Shown piece by piece: positions 3,595-21,975 of a stretch of DNA of 64,000 bases. Every line of letters starts with the position of its first letter. Position 1 is the first letter of the stretch. The DNA comes from Dictyostelium discoideum (Eukaryota). The stretch lies in assembly GCA_000004695.1 (NCBI GenBank), contig CM000150.2, forward strand, positions 384,001 to 448,000. Reading direction: 5' to 3'. The notes under the pieces are model-generated. The model saw nothing but the letters and a program-made list of their open reading frames with translations, was not told the origin of the DNA and did no database searches. The translations under genes and the position numbers were made by a program.

Positions 3595-5333
3595 TATTGA
3601 TTGTAAATAAATTTTATTATTATTTAATAAATTTTGTAAAATTAATTGAGAATTTGGACCAAAAAGTTTTAAAAGATAATTATAATTTGATTGTATACCA
3701 ATTTCAGAAGTTGCACAAAGTAAATGTGATGATAAAATATTTGGAAAATCACCATTGAATGAAAGTTTTTCAGCTTCACCTTCATAGAGTGACATTGGAT
3801 TATTTGAAAAGAATTTGTCTAATGGACTATAGTAATCTGGTATGTATAGTACTAAACCAAGTTTTGATCTACCTACTCTACCAACACGTTGTTTCCAACT
3901 CATTTTACTACCAGGATAACCAATGATTAGACATGCATCCAACTCTGAGATATCGACACCTGCCTCCAATGCATTGGTTGATAGGATTACATTTACATTA
4001 CCACGTTTCAATTGTTCCAATGTTTCCTTTTTATGAGCGGCTGATAACGATGCGTAATAGGGTCTTACCAATTTAGCTTTCTGTGAGAATTTACCATCAT
4101 TTGAAAAACTTTCATATAGAGTATTCAATGATTTAATTGTATTAAAGAATACAATACCCTTTATACCATACTGAATCCAATTGTTTATAATTATCGATGG
4201 TAAATAAAATGAATTTTTAGTTGGTCTAAGTGTTAGAAATACTTTTCCAAATGATCCCGAACCATTTCTATCGATTAAATGTAATCTTTGAGGTGACTCA
4301 TTTTGTCTACTAATGGTTTTTAATCCAATTTCAATTGGATTACCAACTGTAGCTGATGCCATTAAAAATTGTAATCTATTACTATTTAAAAAATTGATTT
4401 TTGAATTTAAATTAAAATGATAGTTTTGAATACGTCTAATTAAATTTATAAAATGACAACCCAATGCGCCAGAATATGTATGAATTTCATCTAAAACTAT
4501 GAAACGAAGATCGCTGAACCATTTTCTCCAACTATCATCCGAACCACTTTTTAAACCACCTCTATAGAGTTGATAATGTAACCAATCGGGACTTGTTAGG
4601 ATGATGTCGGGTTTGGTTGACTTATTTGAAAATAGTCTTGATAATGAATCTTTTTGAGTATCACGACTAAAACTATTAATATTTAAACGTAAATCAATGG
4701 GTAACATTTGATTCAACCTATTGATTGAGTTTAATTGATCATTTGCCAATGCATTCAATGGTACTAAAAACATTGCACTTGGAGTTTTAATTAAGGGTTG
4801 TTTTAAAACGTTTTGAGAGATTTGTAAATTCTTTAATTTTGCTTTTAATATCTCTTCAAATATCGGTAGAAATAAACAAAGTGTTTTACCACTTGATGTT
4901 GGTGTTGTAATAATAACATCATCACCTTGTATTACCTTTGAACGACATTCCAATTGATGACTATAAAGTTTATTATAACCCATTGATCTTAATACTCCAC
5001 TCAATATTGATGGTATCTCTTTTGGAATTTCCAATAAATTTGGTTCTTGATGTTCCGTACAATATAAATGAGTAATTGTACCTTTTAATGAAATTGCTAT
5101 CTTTTTAAATGGTTCATGTTTAATATTTTCTTCAATTTCTTCTTCTTTAATTAATATTTCATTATTATTATTATTATTGCTATTGTTATTATTAAATAAT
5201 TTATTATTTAATAATGATTCATTAATTTGTTGTTGTTGTTGTTGTTGTTGACTCGAATTTGATTTATATGATTGTATGAAACTATCAAATGATTTATTTA
5301 TATCTTCATTCTTACTTTTTATACTATTTATTG

Positions 5334-5822: not shown

Positions 5823-6186
5823 TATTATTATTGTGATTACTTATATTATTGATATTAACATTATTATTAGGTATTAAACTGTTGAAGGATAGAGCAGGTA
5901 AATCAAATGGTGATAAATCAGAATCTGAAATAGGTTGGTTACTACTATTGTTTTGTTGTGATGGAAAATTTAGGGAATATTTTGCTTTATTTTCGTTATT
6001 ATTATTATTATTATTTATATTATTACTATTATTAGTTGAGAAAGAACCAAATTGTCTTTTTGAATTATTTCTAACATTTGAATCTAAACCATTTAATAAT
6101 TCTTGTTGAGAAAATAATCTTTTCTTTGGGTTTATAAAATCATTTTTATAACTATCACTATCACTAATTTTATTATTTATATTCAT
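2296..6186 (-). CDS. Hrq1/YprA(MrfA)-like DExH-box ATP-dependent helicase with a C-terminal Cys-rich (DUF1998/MZB-type) zinc module, two exons: complement(join(2296..2824, 2924..6186)). About 1263 aa. The N-terminal ~400 aa are poly-Asn/Gln low complexity.
   Basis: Helicase motifs in the 1088-aa ORF are TPTSSGKTL (Walker A), DEIH (motif II), MASAT (motif III) and QRVGRVGRS (motif VI). On the minus strand the apparent stop TAA at 2920-2922 sits inside ACTAG|GTAAAG, a canonical donor. A 99-bp intron ends at ...TTTTAAAAG| and joins in phase to ...RDIFKPIFNKKIEELRNKLQRSLTIDRKEYDSKIFDLLE. That segment continues into the 137-aa ORF MGDTRV..., which carries CTSCEENC...CICCFHQNHC. Confidence 0.8.
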
Positions 6187-6445: not shown

Positions 6446-11584
<5,139 letters not shown>

Positions 11585-11631: not shown

Positions 11632-11714
11632 GAAGATTAAAAAAAAAAAAAAAAATTGAGTTAATTAAATTAAATATATGTTTTAATTCTTTTTTTTTTT
11701 TTTTATTTATTTTT

Positions 11715-13021
11715 TTAGATTATTGAAAATTCTTTTTTTTCATCACCATCATCAAAAGGTAAAAAGAAAGAATCAATAAAAGATTGATTTATATCATATA
11801 TTGATGAAGGTGAATAAATTGGTTTATGAGTTTTATCAATTAAAGTTTTGAAAACACCTTGAGTTAAATCTTGTCTATTGCCCAATCTAGTACCAACCCT
11901 GACTTCCATTTGAAAGATTTGATCAATATTCATTTGTAAAGCACGTTTAATAATTTCAAATGAGACACAAACTGATGTCGGACATAATTGATCTAATAGT
12001 ATAGATAATGTTTTTGAAGCCCATTCAATTTCATCTTTATTGTTTTTATTATCCACATTTTCAATCTCCACTTTCAATTGATTCAATATCTCTTTCACTG
12101 ATTTAAATTCTTTATTATTAAAACATCTATTAATTATTGATTGATAAAGAACTAAATGAGAAGACTCTTTATCAGGATACAATGTCTTTCTATACTTATT
12201 TAAAATGAATTCAATTTGTCTATAACCTTCAATATCATCATCATTACATAACTCTTCCAATGTTCTTTCAAATAATTCATTTGGTATATAATGAGTTGCC
12301 AATTTCACATTTATCAAATCTTTTGAATTTATCTTTACCCCAACCATTGCTAAATATAATCCAATTGAACCAAGTCTAGATAAAAAATAACTTGTACCCA
12401 CATCTGGAAAATATCCAATTCTATTCTATATTTTCAATAAATTTATATTAGAGAAACATAAGATCCTATGTAGTAGTAGTAGTATTAGTAGTATTGGTAG
12501 TGTACACTTACTTCAGGCATTGCCCATTGAACATTATCACCTATAATTCTATGACTAGAATGTATGCTTAGACCTACACCACCACCCATGACAATACCAT
12601 TAACGAATGATAGAATTGGTTTATTAAATGTATGAATTAAATGATCCATTGCATATTCTACTCTAATGAATTCATTAACACCAGCTGATGAGCGTGACAA
12701 TTGTGAAAACTCTTTAATATCACCACCTGAACAAAATGATTTCTCTGTACTACTATTTATTATTACAAATTTACAATTATCATCATTATTAAATTCTTTA
12801 AGTTTTTCTGATAAAAATTTTAACATTTCCATAGTTAATGAATTCAATGCTTCACTTCTATTTAATATTATTCTTTTACATCCATTTTTATATTCTATAA
12901 TTTTAATTTTATTATTTTCCATTTCTTTTAAAACATTATTATTATTATTAAATTGTTTTTGTTGTGGTTGTGGTTGTAGTTGTGAAAATAATAAATGGTT
13001 TTTAATAATTTCTATTCTATT

Positions 13022-13024
<3 letters not shown>
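11715..13024 (-). CDS. 3-hydroxyisobutyryl-CoA hydrolase (crotonase/enoyl-CoA hydratase superfamily), paralog A. Two exons: complement(join(11715..12425, 12512..13024)). About 407 aa.
   Basis: KSFCSGGDIKEF and GIVMGGGVGLSIH are crotonase oxyanion-hole motifs, followed by WAMPE. The donor is GAA|GTAAGT at 12511. An 86-bp intron has its acceptor ...AAAATATAG| at 12426, and exon 2 starts NRIGYFPDVGTSYFLSRLG (the HIBCH catalytic Asp region). The ORF-track tail 'VSVHYQYY*' is intron read-through. Confidence 0.8.
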
Positions 13025-13063
<39 letters not shown>

Positions 13064-13720
13064 TTAAAAATATTAAAAAAAATGAAAAAATACAAATAAA
13101 GCATTAAAATGAATTTTATTATAACATTTTTTTTTTTTTTTTTACACAAAAATTTTTTTTTCTAATGAAAAAACTTTTTTTTTTAAAAATATCTTTTTTA
13201 TTTTTATGACGATAATGATCGGAAATTAAAAAAAAAAAAAAAATTTTGAAAATACATATGTATTTTTTTTATTTTATTTTTTTTTTATTTTCGATTATTC
13301 AAATAAGGGGAATCGCATAGAAAATAAAAAAAAAAAAAAAAAGGCGACAAACCACTTTAATGCCGAAATTTTTACATCCAACCACCCTTATATTCAAATT
13401 AATAATATTAACTTTTTTAAAAAAAATATTATGACTCAATCTGTGAATTATTATATATATATTTTGGAGTGTTTCAGATATTATCTTTGGACATTCCAAA
13501 CATGTTATCTTACTTGGCTTAGCTCAAAATAGAACCATAGGTACAGGTAGAATTTTATCAGTTAATATTTATGAATCATGTGAGATGACAACGCTATCTA
13601 ATGGCTGTAAGATACGAGTTGTACTAGATTTTAAATTAATCATGTTTATTAAATATCTACAATTTCCATAAAACAAATAATTAATTTTAATTTTTTTTAT
13701 CTTTAAAATTTCTCCTTTTT

Positions 13721-13784
<64 letters not shown>

Positions 13785-13799
13785 TTTACAATTAGATTT

Positions 13800-14340
13800 A
13801 ATTAAATCTATAGCAAATATCATACTTTAAATAATTAAATCTTTTTTAAAAAAATTTTATCTTCCCTCCACCCCTCAACCCTTTTTTATTTTTAAAAAGA
13901 GTTTAAAAAAAAAAAAAAAAAAAGTAAAAATTGTTTAAAATAGAAATGTAATAATTAGTATTTTATTACACACTTTTAAATATTTATTATTTTTAAAATT
14001 AATTATTAAATTTGAAATATTGTGGAAATTAAAAAAAAAAAAAAAAAGTTTAAACTTTATCCACTCCTTATTTCTTATAAAATTTCTTCGCTTTTTTCAA
14101 AATAAAAAAAAAAAATTCTTTTTTTAAATAATTATTAGATGCCATATAATAAAACTGAAATAAATTTTCATACTTAATTAAATCTTTTTTTATTTTTTTT
14201 CAAAATTTTTATCTCCTTTTTAAAATAAAAAGTCAAAATTGTTTAAGAATTGAAAAATTAGTATTTTCACACATTTGAATAATAATATTTTTTTATTTTC
14301 AAAATTAATAAATAAATACCTCAATTTTAAAAAAAATAAA
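13800..14340. repeat. Two diverged ~190-bp direct repeats (about 13800-14030 and 14150-14340, roughly 70% identity) in the spacer between the two HIBCH paralogs.
   Basis: Both copies share CATACTT(T/A)A.TTAAATCTTTTTT...TTTATCT(T)CC...GT(A/C)AAAATTGTTTAA...ATTAGTATTTT..CACA...TTTTCAAAATTAAT. Confidence 0.5.
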
Positions 14341-14416
14341 AAAATAAAAAAAATTTTAAAATTTATGATTATTTACTTCTTATTTTAGATAGATTTTTTT
14401 TATTTCTTTTTATTTT

Positions 14417-15601
14417 TTATTTATATAATTTTTTATGATAAAAAAGTTCTTTTTTTTCATTATCAAATGGTAAAAATAATGAATCAATATATGATTGGTC
14501 AACGTCATATATTGATGAGGGAGAGAATTTTGGTTTAAAAGATTTATCAATTAAAGCCCCATTGATGCCTTGAAATAAGTCTTTTCTTGAACAAATTCTA
14601 TTACCAATTCTATTGTCATTAATTAAAATTTCTTTTAAATCTAAATTTAAAGAACGATGTACACTATTGAATGAAACACAGATTGAAGTTGGACATGAAT
14701 TCATTAAAGTAGTAACAGTTTTAACTAACCATTCTTTTTCATTTGGATTATTATTTTCAAGTAATTCTTTATTCAATTTATTAAATATTTCTGAAACTGA
14801 ATTAAATTTTGTATTAAAACATCTTTGAATAATTTTATTATATTTCACAATATGGGATGTCTCTTTAGTAATTTTTAAATTTCTTTTATATTTATTTAAT
14901 ATAAAATCAATATCATTTTTATTTGATATATTTGGTGATAAACACAAATCATTTGTAACTTGATTAAATAAATGAAATGGTATATGATTTTGAACAAGAC
15001 CAAGCTTTAATAAATCTGGTGAATTAATAAAATTTCCAACCATTGCCAAATATAAACCAATTGCACCTAATTTAGAAAGGTAGTAACTAGTACCGACATC
15101 TGGAAAGTATCCAACCTTATTCTTAAAATTTTAAAAATTTTATAATTAGTAAAAATGAAAATAATAATTTAATATTCCCCACCAACTTACTTCTGGCATT
15201 GACCATTTAACATTTTCACTAACAATTTTATGACTACAATTAATACTTATACCAACACCACTACCAATTACAAATCCATTGATTAATGAAATAATTGGTT
15301 TTTTAAAATTGTGAATTAAATCAACAAGAGAATACATTGATGAAAGTATTGGAGTGACTCCTTCTGATGTATTTGATTTTTCAACCAACTCTTTTAAATC
15401 ACCACCAGTGGAAAATGATTTATTATTGTTACTACTTAATAAAACAAATTTAGTTTCCGGATCATTATTATATTCATTTAATTTATTAAATAAATCAATT
15501 GACATATTTAAATTTAAAGAATTTAATGATTCACTTCTATTTATTAATATTTTTCTACTTCCATTTTTAAATTCTTCAATTAAAATATTTTTTAAATTCA
15601 A
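14417..15601 (-). CDS. 3-hydroxyisobutyryl-CoA hydrolase-like, paralog B. A diverged tandem duplicate with two exons: complement(join(14417..15121, 15191..15601)). About 371 aa.
   Basis: Same architecture as paralog A: KSFSTGGDLKEL, GFVIGSGVGISIN, WSMPE|GTAAGT. A 69-bp intron is followed by NKVGYFPDVGTSYYLSKLGAIG. The intron sits at the same position as in paralog A. The oxyanion-hole residues have diverged (FCSGG to FSTGG, MGGGVG to IGSGVG). Confidence 0.75.
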
Positions 15602-16225
15602 TAATTTTTTTTTTTTTTTTTTTTTTTTGTTTTTTTTTTTTTTTTAATTTATTTTTTTAATTAATAATAATAGAAATTTCTATTTAAAATTATTGTATTT
15701 TTTTAGATTTTGTTATTTTTGTTTTAATTAAATTTGTTTTTTTTTTTAAACTAAAAATTTTACTTAAGTTTTCTGTTTTCTGGTTTTTTTTTTTTTTTTT
15801 CGGAAAATAGCATTACTTTAAAAAAATAAATATTAATTTATTTTAATTAAATTTGGAAAAAAAATAATATATTAGATCCTACCAACAGGATTTTTTTTTT
15901 TTGTAAAATTTTAGTAGATAATTTGATTAAAATTTTAAAAGTGGGAAAAAATAAAGTGGGAATTTTTGAAAAAAAAAAAAAAAAAAGAAAATAAATAATA
16001 AAAATATGGAAATTTGTCGCCTATTGTATGGGATTATAATTTTTTTATAAAATTTAAACTATTAAGATTAAAATTTTTTTTTTTTTTTTTTTTTTAAGGC
16101 CAGATAATGAAATACCTAAATATAAAATTAACAAGTAAAAAAAAATAGAAACTTAAAATTTATTTTAAAAACATTATTTCCTTTTTTTTTGTTTAATTTT
16201 ATTTTATTAAAATTAAAAATTTAAA

Positions 16226-16349: not shown

Positions 16350-19300
16350 TCAATTTGATTCATTTCCAAATGTAATTGAAGAATTTTTATTTGATTTTGA
16401 ATTAATTGAAGAAGAATTTAAATCAGTTGAGGAGGAAGAAGAACTTGTATTTTTCATTTTAACAATTGACCTTATACTCTTTCTTGTATATTTACCAAGT
16501 GGAATTTGATTATTTGTTACAAGTAATACAATGACAGGAATCATTTCAGTTACGATTAAACCAACAAAAGAGAAAATAATATTACTTGGATTAACAGAAA
16601 CCAAGATTACAATGAAAATACAATGTAATACAAAACCGGTACCACATAAAACTGTGATAACAAAAGTTCTATTTCTTTGTTTATTTGCAGAGGTTTGAGA
16701 GGTTTTACTAGAGAGAGCTGATAATTTATTATAAATTTGTCTACCATAATAAATGAAAGCAATACCAATTGCCAAAGAAAGACAAGCTTGTAAAACTGCA
16801 TAAAATATTGAAACTGCATTTTGTGGTGTAGTCTGTTCCAAATTAATTAATAATCTACCACCACATGATTTTGGTGTTGATTGTTTAGTGAAATTGTAAA
16901 CTATAACAATTATAATGAAAACTATATAAAGTACAACATTGATTAAAAACACCATCATATTAATACGACCGTAAATATCATTACTAAACGATGATGCGTT
17001 ACTTAACATATACCAAATTACAATTACAATTGTAAAAGCAGTGAAATATAAAAATGTTGGTAAAACCACTAAAATATAATTTCCAACGGTTGTAGTCTCT
17101 GTAATGATACCATTTGGTAAAATGAAGAAATAAATTGATCTAATCAAAGAGAATGCAGTAAGTACTAAAAATAAAAGATGTACTAATTTAAATGGTTCAG
17201 TTGATAAAACTTTTTGAATTGTAAAGAAACCAAGATGTAATAAACCATAAATACCTAATAAACAAAATAAAACTGCTAAAACATATAATAAACCTGATGA
17301 ACTATTATTAAATGGTTTAAAATTTTCATTTTCCCAATTTGAAATTCTTTCAATTAAAAAGTATGATCTTTTACCAATTTCAATAAAATTAATTATTTCA
17401 CCACGGTCATTTAAAATTTCATCATCATCATCGTTGTCATTAGTTTTTTGATTTGAATTAAAACCATTTGAATTTTTAAAATTAATTAAACAACAATATC
17501 TATTTTTTTCATCAATTTCAATTAAACATTCTAATGGTATTAATTGACCTTGATCATTATTTTCTAAATAACCAAAATCAATAATTGGATTCTTTTTTGA
17601 ATTTCTTGAAATTGTTTGTGACATACAAATTTTAAAATTTATAACACCCTGATCAAAAATTTCTAAATTTATACCATCATTTAATAGTTTACCAATTACT
17701 GCTTTTTTATTATTAAAGAATGAATAATCATCAGGTTTATCAAATGATACAAAAGTTGAAGATAATGAAATCACTTTTTTAGATAAGAAAGTTTCTTTAT
17801 AAATTTGACCAATTGAAATTGAAACACAAGAACTTTCATCGATTGAACCCAACGAAAATGATAATGAACCATCATTGAAAATGGTAGTATTTGATGGATC
17901 ATAACATGGTTTTATAACTTTTAAAACTGGTGTATCTAAATCATTATAACAATCATCACCAATACCATCGGATGAACAACCACATGATAATGCCTCTAAT
18001 GAATTCTTTGAATTTGATGTACGACATAAAATTTCAGATTTATATAATAAATTGGTTCTACTTTGTGCTGCATTATCAAATGATGTGAAAAATCTACCTA
18101 AATCCAATGACAATTGAAAGTTGGCAATATATTTAACAGGTTCATCATTTTTAATCCATTTTAATGGTACAGCCACTGCAGGTGTCCAAATACCAGATGT
18201 CCAGCTAAATGGTTGTTTCCAAGTTTCACCAGCATATTTACAATCATTTTCATTCTTTTCATTAAATCTAAAAGTTAATGGTAGTAAATAACCACCTGGT
18301 GATCTATCAATACCATAACATAATGGTTCATATTTTGTTTGTTCACATTCATCTCTATTGGCAGCAGGTAAAGTCCACCACCATTTTCCACCAGTTTGTT
18401 CGCAAGTGGTTTGATCTATAAATGTTAAATTGAAACAACCAAATGGTGAATCAATTTGAGTTTGAAATTCACAAGTTGGTAAACTTGCACCAATCAATGC
18501 TTTACTAGTACGTGGATATAAACATTTTGGTTGATAAGGATTACTATCACCGATTTTATAATTAAAATAATATTGATCATCACATTTACCAGAGTTTTCA
18601 CAATCAATTTTATTTGTACATGGAATTTCATATAATCCACAAAATAAACCAAATGAATTACAACCATTAACTAAATCATTACAATAAGTACATTGATCAT
18701 ATGAAAAATCACCACAATTTTTAAATACTGTATTTGAATAATCAGTTGAACAAGTACTTTCATTAATTGATGTATAAATACAATACATTGTTGATGATGA
18801 TTCATCAAACCATTTTTCATGTGATTCATTATTAATTTCTGGACAAACTGTAACTCCAGTTCCAAATGTTGATAATGGTATGAAACAACCTGTAAATTGT
18901 GAACATTCTAAACCACAACCAACTGTACAACTACCATAATTATCTGAACATTCACTTTCATCATTTACAGTAAATAAATCATAATCTACAAATTTATCAT
19001 TACTATGATCTTGTTTATAACAAACAAAATTATTGTTACCCGATTCACAAGATGATTGATTTAAAAAGTTTGAATCAACATAACAATTTCTAATTGGATC
19101 AGTACAATCACCACAGAAATAATCTGGTGGATTATTATTTAAACAATCATTAATTAAATTTGTAGTATCATAACCATCATACCAATTCATTGTACCTTGA
19201 TAATCTAACCAATTACAACGTGCTAAAGCTAAACAAGAATCCTTTGGGAATGCTTCAACTAACCATGTGAAAATATTTAAACCAGTGAAACAACTATCAT

Positions 19301-21975
19301 AAACTATTGATGGTGTAGTTTGATCTAAACCAATAACCAATGGAAAACAAAAACCATTTGTAGAGGTACTTGATGAATATGCAAAACTTTTTCTAGCCCA
19401 TGATGAAGTACCCAATGGATAATTACAATCATTAGTTTGATGTTTTTTCATTAATTCAATTGATAATTCTCTTTCATTTTCAAAATTATTATTTAATAAC
19501 CCCAATATTGATAAAACATCAGTTCTTAATGGTGTTGAAATATTTGATAATATACAACTTACAAAATTTAATTCCAATTCTGAATATGCAATTAAACATA
19601 ATCCATTTCTTTTATTACAACTAGTTGTAATATTTAAATTTGAAGAGTTATAATAATTTTCACAATCTAAATCCTCTTTACAAACAATTGGATAAATTGA
19701 TGGTTTACAAGCTCTAAAAACTTTATAAAGTGAATCTGTATAATAGTTTTGTTCATCTTGAGTTACACTACATTGTTCAAATTGTGTACCTGTTATAGTT
19801 TCAGAGAAAGTATTTAAAACTGATTCTGTACAATCTGGATATGAACATTTTTCATTCATTTGATCGTTATTTACACCATTGAATACTGTTGTTGTAATAT
19901 TTTGTAATCTTGGTCTACAAACTGATTTAAAAGTTGCATAAAAACTACAACATGGGTCATTGTAATAGTTGTTAATATCATTGGTTTCCGAGCAAAGTGT
20001 TGTATTTATTAAGGTTGTAGTTTGATTTAATATTAATAAATTCTCGGCCATTTTCTGACAAGAATTATAATCATCATAAAAACTTAACACATCTAAATAG
20101 TAACGTAATCCACTTATAGTTGATGAAGTTGCATTATCAATTGATTTTAAAACTGAATCGAAAATTTCATTAATTTTTGAAAATTTATTAAATGTACATT
20201 CTGGATTAACTTGATTACCAATTGATTTAGAACCAACTATTAAACTACCATTACCATAGACTAATCTATTTTTAAATGTTAATACTGTACTTGACAAATC
20301 CTCTTCATTAAAGAAATTATATGTATTACCATCAACTGTCAATGATATTATTAATCCAAATTGATAAGTATTTTTTAAAACTAAATTTGATGTGGTTTCA
20401 TTAAATGCAATACCATTAAATTTTGGTACATTTAATGAACGTTCACCATAAATTGATGGTACTGGATATAATGGATTTAAATTGGTTCTTGGAAATGTTG
20501 GTAAATAAACTGTACATTCAACATCATAATTTTCACAATTATATTTTTTACCACCATTTTTTTTAACTTCTAAAAAACTTGTACCTGCTAATGCCCAAGT
20601 ACCAGATAATGATGGATTATTTGTAATATCTCTTAATTTATATTTACCAAATGTTGAAATATAAAAATAAACATCTGATTCATAAAATGTATAAATTCCA
20701 AAAAATAATGTTTTATTATTTTCACCTTTATTTGGACATAATTGAATTATTAAATTATCATCCACTAAATAATAATAATAAAAAAAAATAAAAAAAAAAA
20801 AAATAAAAAATAAAAGTTAATAAAATTTCAACTCTTGGTCTTATTATTAATTTTTTCAAAAAAAAACTTACAAGAAAATGTTGAAGACCATTTATAATTT
20901 GTATTTGAAAATTCTGATAATTCTAAAATATTATCAGTTGCAAATATATCAACATCATTTTGTAAAACAACATTTGAAATTGTTATATTTTTACATTGAT
21001 TAATTGTTAAAGAATATTTTAAAAATGAATTAACTGGTACAAGTGTTGGTATATAAACTTCTTCACCATCATTTAAGCATTGATAATCTGGATGAACATT
21101 TGTACAAGTTGGTGATGGTGATGGTGATGGTGATGGTGGTGATGGTGGTTGAATTGGAATTTCTTCAATTAAAACTTTATAAATTAAATCAGAACCAGCA
21201 CCAACATTTTTAATAGCAATATGAACTGTACCATAAGGATATTGTGAACGATAGTGACCTGCATAAGTTGTATTTAAAGCTGGTGATGATGGACACATTA
21301 CAATTGATGCATCACATTCTTCAGATTGTACAATTCTAGATGCACCATTTGCCAATGGATAGAATGGATAAATATCTGATGAAATTTCACCTAAACCTTG
21401 GATGGTTTTAAAGGTGATTTTATAACCTACACATTCTGATGACGCATAAAATCTATAAAGTTGATAGGATTGGTAATAGGTGTCTATGAAACCTTGAGTT
21501 TCATTACCAATTTCAATATCTTTCCAATTCATTTCACATGGTGTATAGAAAAATCTTTGTGAAAATAATTCATCACATACTTCGCATTCTGGTGGTCTAT
21601 CATCATATCCAGCTTCACAACCTTTATGTGTATAATCACATGGTGGACATTCACTTGGATATGGTGGACATGTTGCATTTGGACATGTATAACTTTCTAA
21701 TAAATAAATTGGTTCTTCAAAATAAATTGAACCACTAACAATTTTAATATTTGTATCTAATAAATTTAATGATTTAATTGTATAATTTGAATTTACATTT
21801 TTTAATTCAATTTCTTCACAATTTATAATTTTTAAAACTTAAAAAAAAAAAAAAAAAAAAAAGTTAATGGAAAAAAGTTAAAAATAAATTTTAAAAATAT
21901 CATTATTATAAAAAAAAAATAAAAAATCTTACCAATTATAAAAAAAAATAAATAAATAATTAATTTTCTAATCAT
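16350..21975 (-). CDS. 7TM receptor-like glycoprotein with a ~1350-aa Cys-rich extracellular domain. Three exons: complement(join(16350..20764, 20872..21837, 21933..21975)). About 1807 aa. The first exon is a 43-nt signal-peptide micro-exon.
   Basis: Exon 1 is ATGATTAGAAAATTAATTATTTATTTATTTTTTTTTATAATTG|GTAAGA, encoding MIRKLIIYLFFFII-. A 95-bp intron ends in a poly-T tract plus TAAG|, and the frame continues VLKIINCEEIELKN.... The 234-aa ORF 20828..21532 is internal to exon 2. Its apparent stop lies in the donor TCTT|GTAAGT, and a 107-bp intron ends TTATTTAG| at 20765. The 1471-aa ORF has seven hydrophobic helices near its C-terminus (LLYVLAVLFCLLGIYGLL ... IIFSFVGLIVTEMIPVIVLLV) and a Ser-rich tail. 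Confidence 0.65.

Follow-up and report, generated by a model that had tools for sequence, protein, structure and literature searches.

A tandem pair of HIBCH-family genes in Dictyostelium discoideum: a copy with a peroxisomal PTS2 motif and a faster-evolving copy with substitutions at near-universal active-site positions

What becomes of an acyl-CoA hydrolase gene that has been duplicated in place is the question raised by two adjacent genes on chromosome 1 of Dictyostelium discoideum AX4. They lie on the minus strand of the 64,000-nucleotide stretch analysed here (the window; all coordinates refer to it), and are an annotated but uncharacterised tandem pair of paralogues of the 3-hydroxyisobutyryl-CoA hydrolase (HIBCH) family, referred to below as copy A (the downstream gene) and copy B (the upstream gene). 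The analysis establishes the duplication and its timing, a targeting-signal motif in copy A, a set of active-site substitutions in copy B together with their rarity in the family, an asymmetric rate of evolution and purifying selection. The explanation that we consider probable is the duplication of a hydrolase targeted by a peroxisomal import signal of type 2 (PTS2), followed by relocalisation and active-site change of copy B.

Both genes consist of two exons separated by a phase-0 intron at the same codon boundary. In copy A, exon 1 (12512..13024, 171 codons) encodes the motifs FCSGGD, RVEY and GGGVG and ends in MPE according to the splice model and translation; the 86-nt intron (12426..12511, GTAAGT...ATAG) follows right after the codon of the catalytic Glu171, and exon 2 (11715..12425, including the stop codon) starts with NRIGYFPDVG and contains the codon of Asp179 (Asp177 in human HIBCH) at 12402-12404. 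For copy B, the splice model and family alignment place exon 1, counted from the ancestral start position, at 15191..15601, the 69-nt intron (GTAAGT...TAAG) at 15122..15190, and exon 2, starting with NKVGYFPDVG and including the stop codon, at 14417..15121. The counterparts of human Glu121, Gly146, Glu169 and Asp177 in copy B are Met89 (15335-15337), Ser114 (15260-15262), Glu137 (15191-15193) and Asp145 (15098-15100). A preliminary description of the locus, made from the sequence alone, had proposed two adjacent minus-strand two-exon genes with a donor right after the MPE glutamate codon (GAA/GTAAGT in both copies) and a second exon starting at the GYFPDVG segment, and had listed the motifs FCSGGDIKEF and GIVMGGGVGL for copy A and FSTGGDLKEL and GFVIGSGVGI for copy B; all of these features were recovered.

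The 407-residue product of copy A is an exact match to XP_647154.1 (Q55GN0), and copy B read from its internal Met33 is an exact match to XP_647156.1 (Q55GM8, 339 residues); both are annotated only as 'enoyl-CoA hydratase/isomerase domain-containing protein'. The two proteins share 51% identity over 366 residues, and each matches the Pfam ECH_2 profile (PF16113, cut-off 27.2 bits) over positions 2-335 of 335, copy A with an E-value of 7e-102 (341.7 bits) and copy B with 4e-85 (286.9 bits). No further ECH_2 genes were found by tblastn in the 64-kb window. The best solved relative of both copies is human HIBCH (3bpt), to which residues 43-399 of copy A align with an E-value of 4e-49. A full-length AlphaFold model of copy B (pLDDT 91.6, pTM 0.90) has 3bpt as its top Foldseek match (TM 0.89/0.91), and copy B is predicted by this model to keep the HIBCH-type fold intact. 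The earlier label '3-hydroxyisobutyryl-CoA hydrolase' is thus supported at the level of the HIBCH family (ECH_2) and not for the HIBCH of the valine pathway in particular. A separate mitochondrial HIBCH is presumably encoded by the D. discoideum gene hibch (Q55GS6); no such gene lies in the window.

The key residues published for HIBCH are Glu120, Gly146, Glu169 and Asp177, and Glu120/121 of the (E)EY motif is listed as substrate-binding (PMC7982470). Glu169 and Asp177, within the MPE-x7-PD motif, are assigned to thioester hydrolysis via an acyl-enzyme anhydride in the part of PMC3660561 that draws on Wong & Gerlt (2003). The human sequence used here reproduces the published Gly146, Glu169 and Asp177 as well as the 3bpt alignment, and its numbering is adopted for residues 95, 96, 98, 121, 146, 169 and 177. 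In the resulting motif table copy A retains all canonical residues of the family: Cys95, a Ser at the position of Ala96, Gly98 (the first oxyanion-hole position), Glu121 (in RVEY), Gly146 (the second oxyanion-hole position), Glu169 and Asp177. Copy B, in contrast, is altered at positions 95, 96, 121 and 146, and so is every protein of its clade, with Ser for Cys95, Thr or Ser for Ala96, Met, Ile or Leu for Glu121 (Met in D. discoideum) and Ser for Gly146. Gly98, the GG-D motif and MPE-x7-PD with its catalytic Glu169 and Asp177 are strictly kept throughout the B clade.

The substitutions of copy B are very rare elsewhere in the family. Of 132 ECH_2 homologues outside the B clade, which come from bacteria, fungi, animals and protists, all 132 have Glu121, 131 have Gly146 and 130 have Cys95, and all ten members of the B clade carry Ser95, Met/Ile/Leu121 and Ser146. 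Glu120, the residue named in PMC7982470, is not conserved in the family, and positions 120 and 121 are both non-acidic in copy B. Copy B had previously been credited with diverged oxyanion-hole residues; this is correct for the replacement of Gly146 by Ser, but Gly98 is intact and the changes in the first motif affect the flanking residues Cys95 and Ala96. The most striking change in copy B is the loss of Glu121, which had been overlooked.

The copies also differ at their N-termini. Copy A carries an N-terminal extension with the nonapeptide RIEIIKNHL at codons 3-11 (12992..13018, minus strand), a regular-expression match to the strict PTS2 consensus (R/K)(L/I/V/Q)xx(L/I/V/H/Q)(L/S/G/A/K)x(H/Q)(L/A/F), and PTS2 import is functional in D. 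discoideum (PMC3465988). The chance of a strict match is 0.0013 per random 40-mer of copy A composition, and the signal is kept in at least seven dictyostelid orthologues of copy A. A strict PTS2 occurs at residues 3-11 in three D. discoideum lineages, D. citrinum and D. firmibasis, and its position is shared by RIDVLSNHL of C. fasciculata and RIEMISQHL of T. lacteum. The form RIx5H(L/I) is seen in D. purpureum, where the true, unannotated N-terminus carries RIENIISHL, and in D. dimigraforme and the protein P0012, where Ile replaces the terminal Leu. No PTS2 was found in any protein of the B clade, and D. discoideum copy B, which ends in -LYK, has no type 1 signal (PTS1) either. In its predicted structure copy B begins directly at beta-strand 1, in agreement with the earlier remark that it lacks the N-terminal extension. 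A mitochondrial destination is not indicated for either copy, as the N-terminus of copy A is not presequence-like and holds a strict PTS2 instead, and copy B has no presequence.

From these motifs the ancestral protein was most likely peroxisomal, and we infer that copy A is imported into peroxisomes via Pex7. Copy B most likely stays in the cytosol, because the PTS2-bearing leader has been lost. Of the two B-type proteins of D. firmibasis, one ends in -SKL, a canonical PTS1, and the other in -SKY; in this species another signal may thus have returned a B-type enzyme to the peroxisome.

The history of the pair could be traced from gene structure, gene order and family trees. A single phase-0 intron at the same MPE/N position is present in all nine A, B and B2 genes examined, from four species. 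The order B then A, between the same two large genes, is found in a second D. discoideum assembly (GCA_054883475.1, L001), in L005, which represents a diverged 'D. discoideum' lineage, and in L007 of D. dimigraforme, where an unrelated gene of 441 residues is inserted between B and A. In D. firmibasis (L006), with the same flanking genes, A is preceded by two genes of the B type, and both types are present in D. citrinum. In neighbour-joining trees the A clade is supported by 100% of bootstrap replicates, the B clade by 76-98% and A+B by 100%. Outside A+B are the single-copy genes from D. purpureum, P. violaceum, T. lacteum and C. fasciculata. The pair arose by a DNA-level tandem duplication in group-4 Dictyostelium, later than the divergence of D. 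purpureum. The local tandem duplication suggested earlier is thus supported by the shared intron, the synteny and the monophyly of A+B, but it is old rather than recent, since the copies are 51% identical and are shared by at least four species.

Further B-type copies were observed. The two of D. firmibasis (L006, 4040-5257 and 6001-7103), located upstream of A, are recent duplicates with 91.5% identity. Additional unlinked B-like copies are present in D. cf. discoideum (P0145, ACTFIY_008032) and in D. dimigraforme (P0005, ACTA71_010262). P0145 lacks the region from motif 1 to motif 2 and has Lys at the position of Glu169, which may reflect either decay of this copy or a faulty gene model.

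The selective regime cannot be read from the ratio of nonsynonymous to synonymous divergence (dN/dS) between the paralogues, as had been suggested, since the NG86 dS between them, 0.75, is close to saturation; comparisons of orthologues and a relative-rate test were used instead. Across the orthologue pairs, the NG86 dN/dS of copy A is 0.20-0.35 and that of copy B 0.37-0.51, the values against D. firmibasis and D. dimigraforme being 0.20-0.35 and 0.37-0.44. The ratio of nonsynonymous to synonymous differences per site (pN/pS) of copy B is 0.41-0.44, significantly below 1 (binomial test against neutrality, P=0.004 and 6e-9), and copy A likewise shows a significant deficit of nonsynonymous changes. 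In a Tajima relative-rate test with D. purpureum as outgroup, copy B has 78 unique replacements and copy A 18 (P=9e-10), copy B thus having evolved about four times faster; the A and B copies of D. dimigraforme and of D. firmibasis show this asymmetry as well, and it is weaker with more distant outgroups. Open reading frames and splice sites of copy B are intact in at least eight genomes. Over evolutionary time copy B is therefore not a pseudogene: it has diverged fast and asymmetrically, and is now constrained, albeit somewhat less than A. Equal constraint with all residues retained in both copies is not what was found, as copy B has lost family-invariant residues and has accumulated by far the larger share of the replacements. 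The neofunctionalisation put forward in the preliminary description is in keeping with these data as far as a changed function is concerned (replacement of invariant residues, asymmetric rate and pN/pS), whereas its other suggestion, that copy B is losing activity, is contradicted over evolutionary time.

We propose the following course of events. The ancestral dictyostelid gene would have encoded a PTS2-tagged, probably peroxisomal, acyl-CoA hydrolase of the HIBCH family, and would have been duplicated in tandem in the group-4 lineage once D. purpureum had split off. Copy A would have kept the ancestral state, i.e. the PTS2 RIEIIKNHL, both oxyanion-hole glycines (Gly98 and Gly146), Glu121 and the Glu169/Asp177 pair. 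Copy B would have lost the PTS2-bearing leader, and with it the peroxisomal location in favour of the cytosol, and would have fixed the changes of Cys95 to Ser, Ala96 to Thr or Ser, Glu121 to Met and Gly146 to Ser, but would have retained Gly98, Glu169 and Asp177 as well as the complete fold. It would presumably still be a thioester hydrolase, with a changed preference for the acyl group because a carboxylate of the acyl pocket has become a hydrophobic residue; its most plausible substrates would be non-hydroxylated or more hydrophobic short acyl-CoAs.

Several points weigh against this proposal. Replacing the near-universal Gly146 and Glu121 could abolish catalysis instead of retuning it. The role given to Glu121 is suggested by its listing as substrate-binding (PMC7982470) and by its conservation, and no mechanistic paper on this residue in HIBCH was found among the open literature. 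Literature searches for Q55GN0, Q55GM8, Q55GS6 and DDB_G0267536 returned nothing. In the closest comparison, AX4 versus L005, the NG86 dN/dS of copy B exceeds that of copy A (0.42 versus 0.23), which is compatible with partly relaxed constraint; dS values are rough in such a very AT-rich genome, and YN00 failed for distant pairs. The trees are of the neighbour-joining type only. Finally, the codon at position 15601 of the AX4 reference, at which copy B should start, is TTG and not ATG, a point that the preliminary description had missed.

Among the alternatives, the one that survives best is that copy B is a dead pseudoenzyme, kept for a non-enzymatic role such as the formation of mixed oligomers with A, which might even carry it piggy-back into peroxisomes. 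Proteins with a crotonase fold form oligomers, and complexes can enter peroxisomes in the folded state, piggy-back import having been described (PMC3465988). The loss of two residues that do not vary among more than 130 homologues, one of them the second oxyanion-hole position, would agree with a dead enzyme, and the purifying selection and the confidently predicted fold fit a structural role equally well. The strict conservation in the B clade of Glu169, Asp177, Gly98, GG-D and MPE-x7-PD, however, is unexpected for a dead enzyme. Moreover, the oxyanion hole of crotonases is formed by backbone NH groups, so the side chain of a Ser at position 146 need not destroy it. A precedent for the recruitment of an HIBCH paralogue to another role is the mitoribosomal protein mS47 (yeast Ehd3, plant HIBCH-like 2), which has the same fold and is among the top structural matches; unlike copy B, which has no presequence, mS47 is mitochondrial, and its sampled members keep Glu121 and Gly146. 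We therefore regard a pseudoenzyme as unlikely, and retuning of an active hydrolase as the better account of copy B.

A second alternative is that copy B is decaying, and that in AX4 it is already a pseudogene through its TTG start. The anomaly (15596..15604, minus strand) reads TTATTGAAT in the AX4 reference and ATAATGAAA, with an ATG start, in the other D. discoideum assembly and a read-based contig. In AX4, the in-frame sequence upstream of 15601 consists of the Lys codons of a poly-A run, preceded by a stop, and there is no in-frame ATG before that of Met33 (15503..15505), which serves as the start in the AX4 annotation (the 339-residue model). An upstream ATG or exon was looked for and rejected, as no ATG in any frame occurs from about 15813 to 15566 and no acceptor follows the in-frame stop. 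A start at Met33 would delete the first two beta-strands of the copy B model (residues 6-10 and 15-20). The faster evolution of copy B relative to A, and the unlinked P0145 with its missing motif region and its Lys for Glu169, could likewise be taken as signs of decay.

The comparison with other genomes argues against this alternative. The orthologues of copy B in every other species start with MK(L/F/S)N...ILIEEF at the homologous codon, and in L001 copy B starts with MKLKNILIEEF and is otherwise identical to that of AX4; between AX4 and ACTFIT, copy B differs at codons 1-2 only, without any other disabling change and with dS=0. Comparison of AX4 with L001 along 5.6 kb shows five substitutions besides differences in homopolymer length. 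Three of the five (15604, 15601 and 15596) fall within 9 nt, right after a 24-nt A-run (P ~7e-5), the remaining sites being 15783 and 11685, and four of the five are A to T changes on the coding strand. The read-based contig (L002), which was seen in three samples, has ATG for copy B, and at 11685 another sample sides with L001 against the reference; at the four AX4-specific sites that are covered by other D. discoideum data, those data agree with each other and disagree with the reference. Such clustered A to T changes beside a poly-A run have the pattern of sequencing errors. Together with the full-length reading frames and correct splice sites in at least eight genomes and a pN/pS significantly below 1, this makes decay of copy B rather improbable, more so than its being a pseudoenzyme; a loss of activity is conceivable for the AX4 reference allele only, given its TTG start.

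As an observation on the reference itself, all single-base differences of AX4 in the 5.6-kb stretch sit within A/T-rich runs. The differences at 15596-15604, 15783 and 11685 suggest either local reference errors or a cluster of AX4-specific mutations. Correspondingly, the missing ATG is either an error in the 2005 reference or a start-loss allele of the AX4 lineage, and not a property of the gene in general; the contigs with ATG come from samples without a strain assignment, and a related sample (L008) has a clearly different haplotype. The ancestral copy B, and copy B in other D. discoideum isolates, is 371 residues long, and the truncated annotation of Q55GM8 results from the TTG in place of ATG. 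The public models of the D. purpureum orthologue (P0014, 330 residues) and of D. firmibasis B2 (P0006, 340 residues) also begin at the invariant internal Met, although the open frame runs upstream to a proper start in both D. purpureum (L009, ~4790-5000) and D. firmibasis (L006, ~5900-6000). These models are probably truncated at the same place because the Met33 column is invariant in the family alignment.

That the pair consists of two ordinary 3-hydroxyisobutyryl-CoA hydrolase isozymes of mitochondrial valine catabolism, with differences devoid of functional meaning, is highly implausible: the best solved match is indeed human HIBCH and the catalytic Glu and Asp are found in both copies, but copy A has a conserved PTS2 and not a presequence, copy B starts at beta-strand 1, the dictyostelid A/B clade stands apart from animal and kinetoplastid HIBCH, the substitutions of copy B are at invariant positions and are fixed across its clade, and the mitochondrial enzyme is presumably encoded by the separate gene hibch.

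Comparison with characterised relatives places relocalisation with active-site change, the explanation preferred here, in a wider context. Human HIBCH (3BPT, PF16113) resembles the pair in its two-domain fold (TM 0.89-0.91 for copy B) and in the motifs FC(A/S)GGD, GGGVG and MPE-x7-PD, and it resembles copy A in Gly98, Glu121, Gly146, Glu169 and Asp177, all of which are kept. It differs by an identity of only ~25-35%, by the mitochondrial presequence that is absent from copies A and B, by the PTS2 of copy A, and by the Ser146, Met121 and Ser95 of copy B. Arabidopsis CHY1 is a beta-hydroxyisobutyryl-CoA hydrolase located in peroxisomes, with a PTS1 (PMC3355810), and thus a member of the HIBCH family in the compartment that is predicted for copy A and its dictyostelid orthologues. 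Its signal, however, is a C-terminal PTS1 (AKL) and not the N-terminal PTS2 (RIx5HL) of copy A, and the plant and dictyostelid clades are separate in the tree, so they are not orthologous as a peroxisomal lineage.

The occurrence of B-type sites beyond group-4 Dictyostelium was surveyed by searching a B-clade profile against 1.84 billion representatives. Among the best 142 new sequences, 130 have Glu121 and 136 have Gly146. The exceptions include extra plant HIBCH paralogues ('HIBCH 1-like' and 'probable HIBCH 3', ending in -AKL/-SKL) and extra insect paralogues. A second paralogue of T. lacteum (P0147) combines a PTS2 with Ser95, Met121 and Ala146. C. fasciculata has a second, strongly diverged ECH_2 gene in tandem (L010, 4732-~6000), directly downstream of the orthologue, with a strict PTS2 (RIGVIANHL), a degenerate motif 1 (MYRGESD), GGL for GGG and Met at 121; its public model fuses it with the next gene into a protein of 1129 residues. 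These plant, insect, T. lacteum and C. fasciculata copies are, like copy B, HIBCH duplicates in which Glu121 has given way to Met, Leu, Ile, Gln or Val, in many cases along with a change of Cys95 to Ser. They are of independent origin, however, and Gly146 is retained in most of them; a targeting signal is retained by those of plants (a PTS1) and by the remaining dictyostelid ones (a PTS2).

Since the copies without Glu121 do not group with the B clade but fall outside it, loss of this residue, often with the change of Cys95 to Ser, looks like a recurrent outcome of HIBCH duplication. Among the sequences compared, only the group-4 B clade combines Ser95, a hydrophobic residue 121, Ser146 and loss of the targeting signal. 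It is conceivable, though at present doubtful, that the B-type site represents an unrecognised second specificity class of HIBCH (ECH_2) proteins, defined by a hydrophobic residue 121 and Ser95, and in Dictyostelium also by Ser146, which separate duplications in group-4 Dictyostelium, Cavenderia, Tieghemostelium, plants and insects would have produced by convergence, and which would in Dictyostelium be coupled to a move from peroxisome to cytosol. A possible function of such a class would be that of a thioesterase for non-hydroxylated short or branched acyl-CoAs.

The spacer between copies B and A (13025..14416) is 1392 bp long and contains a pair of degenerate direct repeats on the minus strand, detected by self-blastn at 14222..14383 (copy 1) and 13914..14078 (copy 2). 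The pair shows 73% identity over a 173-nt alignment with 19 gaps (blastn E-value 2e-20) and has a Smith-Waterman score of 86, versus 36 +/- 6 for shuffled sequences. It is the only full-unit match in the window, other matches being partial, AT-rich and at most 66 bits. An ungapped repeat finder reported poly-A/T families only, and gapped self-alignment was needed to find the repeat. The two direct repeats of ~190 bp noted earlier are therefore real as a pair, but they are degenerate and shorter, with a length of ~165-173 nt. A relic of a third paralogue, as in D. firmibasis, or of the 441-residue gene, as in D. dimigraforme, was sought in the spacer by tblastn, tblastx and blastn, which gave only noise.

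At 13300-13650 the spacer, which has a GC content of ~10%, includes an island of ~350 bp with an exon-like GC content of 25-30%. Its open reading frames are short (at most 33 codons on the plus strand and 66-84 on the minus strand), and conservation in L005, the sister lineage, is limited to ~70 nt (13490-13422). The accession numbers of A and B leave XP_647155 between them, so this island may harbour a small annotated gene. No tRNA was found in the spacer, island included, by ARAGORN, and matches to Rfam families there were limited to sub-threshold chance matches (E-values 0.46 and 0.66). The genes flanking the pair are both on the minus strand. The one at 6446-11584 encodes a protein of 1712 residues with an extremely high content of Asn, Asp and Thr and with long tracts of homopolymers and ND repeats; the other, at 16350-20765, encodes a cysteine-rich protein of 1471 residues with multiple C-terminal transmembrane segments. 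Flanking genes of similar size are found in L001, L005 and L007, and the neighbourhood is thus syntenic.

For the model organism, an immediate consequence is a correction of the gene model, as Q55GM8 is annotated 32 residues short. For the peroxisome, the Dictyostelia are predicted to have a PTS2-targeted HIBCH-like hydrolase, which adds a new candidate to the short list of PTS2 cargo. As an instance of duplication, relocalisation and active-site divergence the pair is of a textbook style that would not surprise a specialist, nor does it overturn current understanding. For the family, it constitutes a natural experiment on the retuning of the HIBCH active site, in which two near-universal residues have been replaced, selection has been kept and the compartment has probably changed, with similar replacements in other lineages; the recurrence of the variant without Glu121 across these lineages is the part most worth pursuing.

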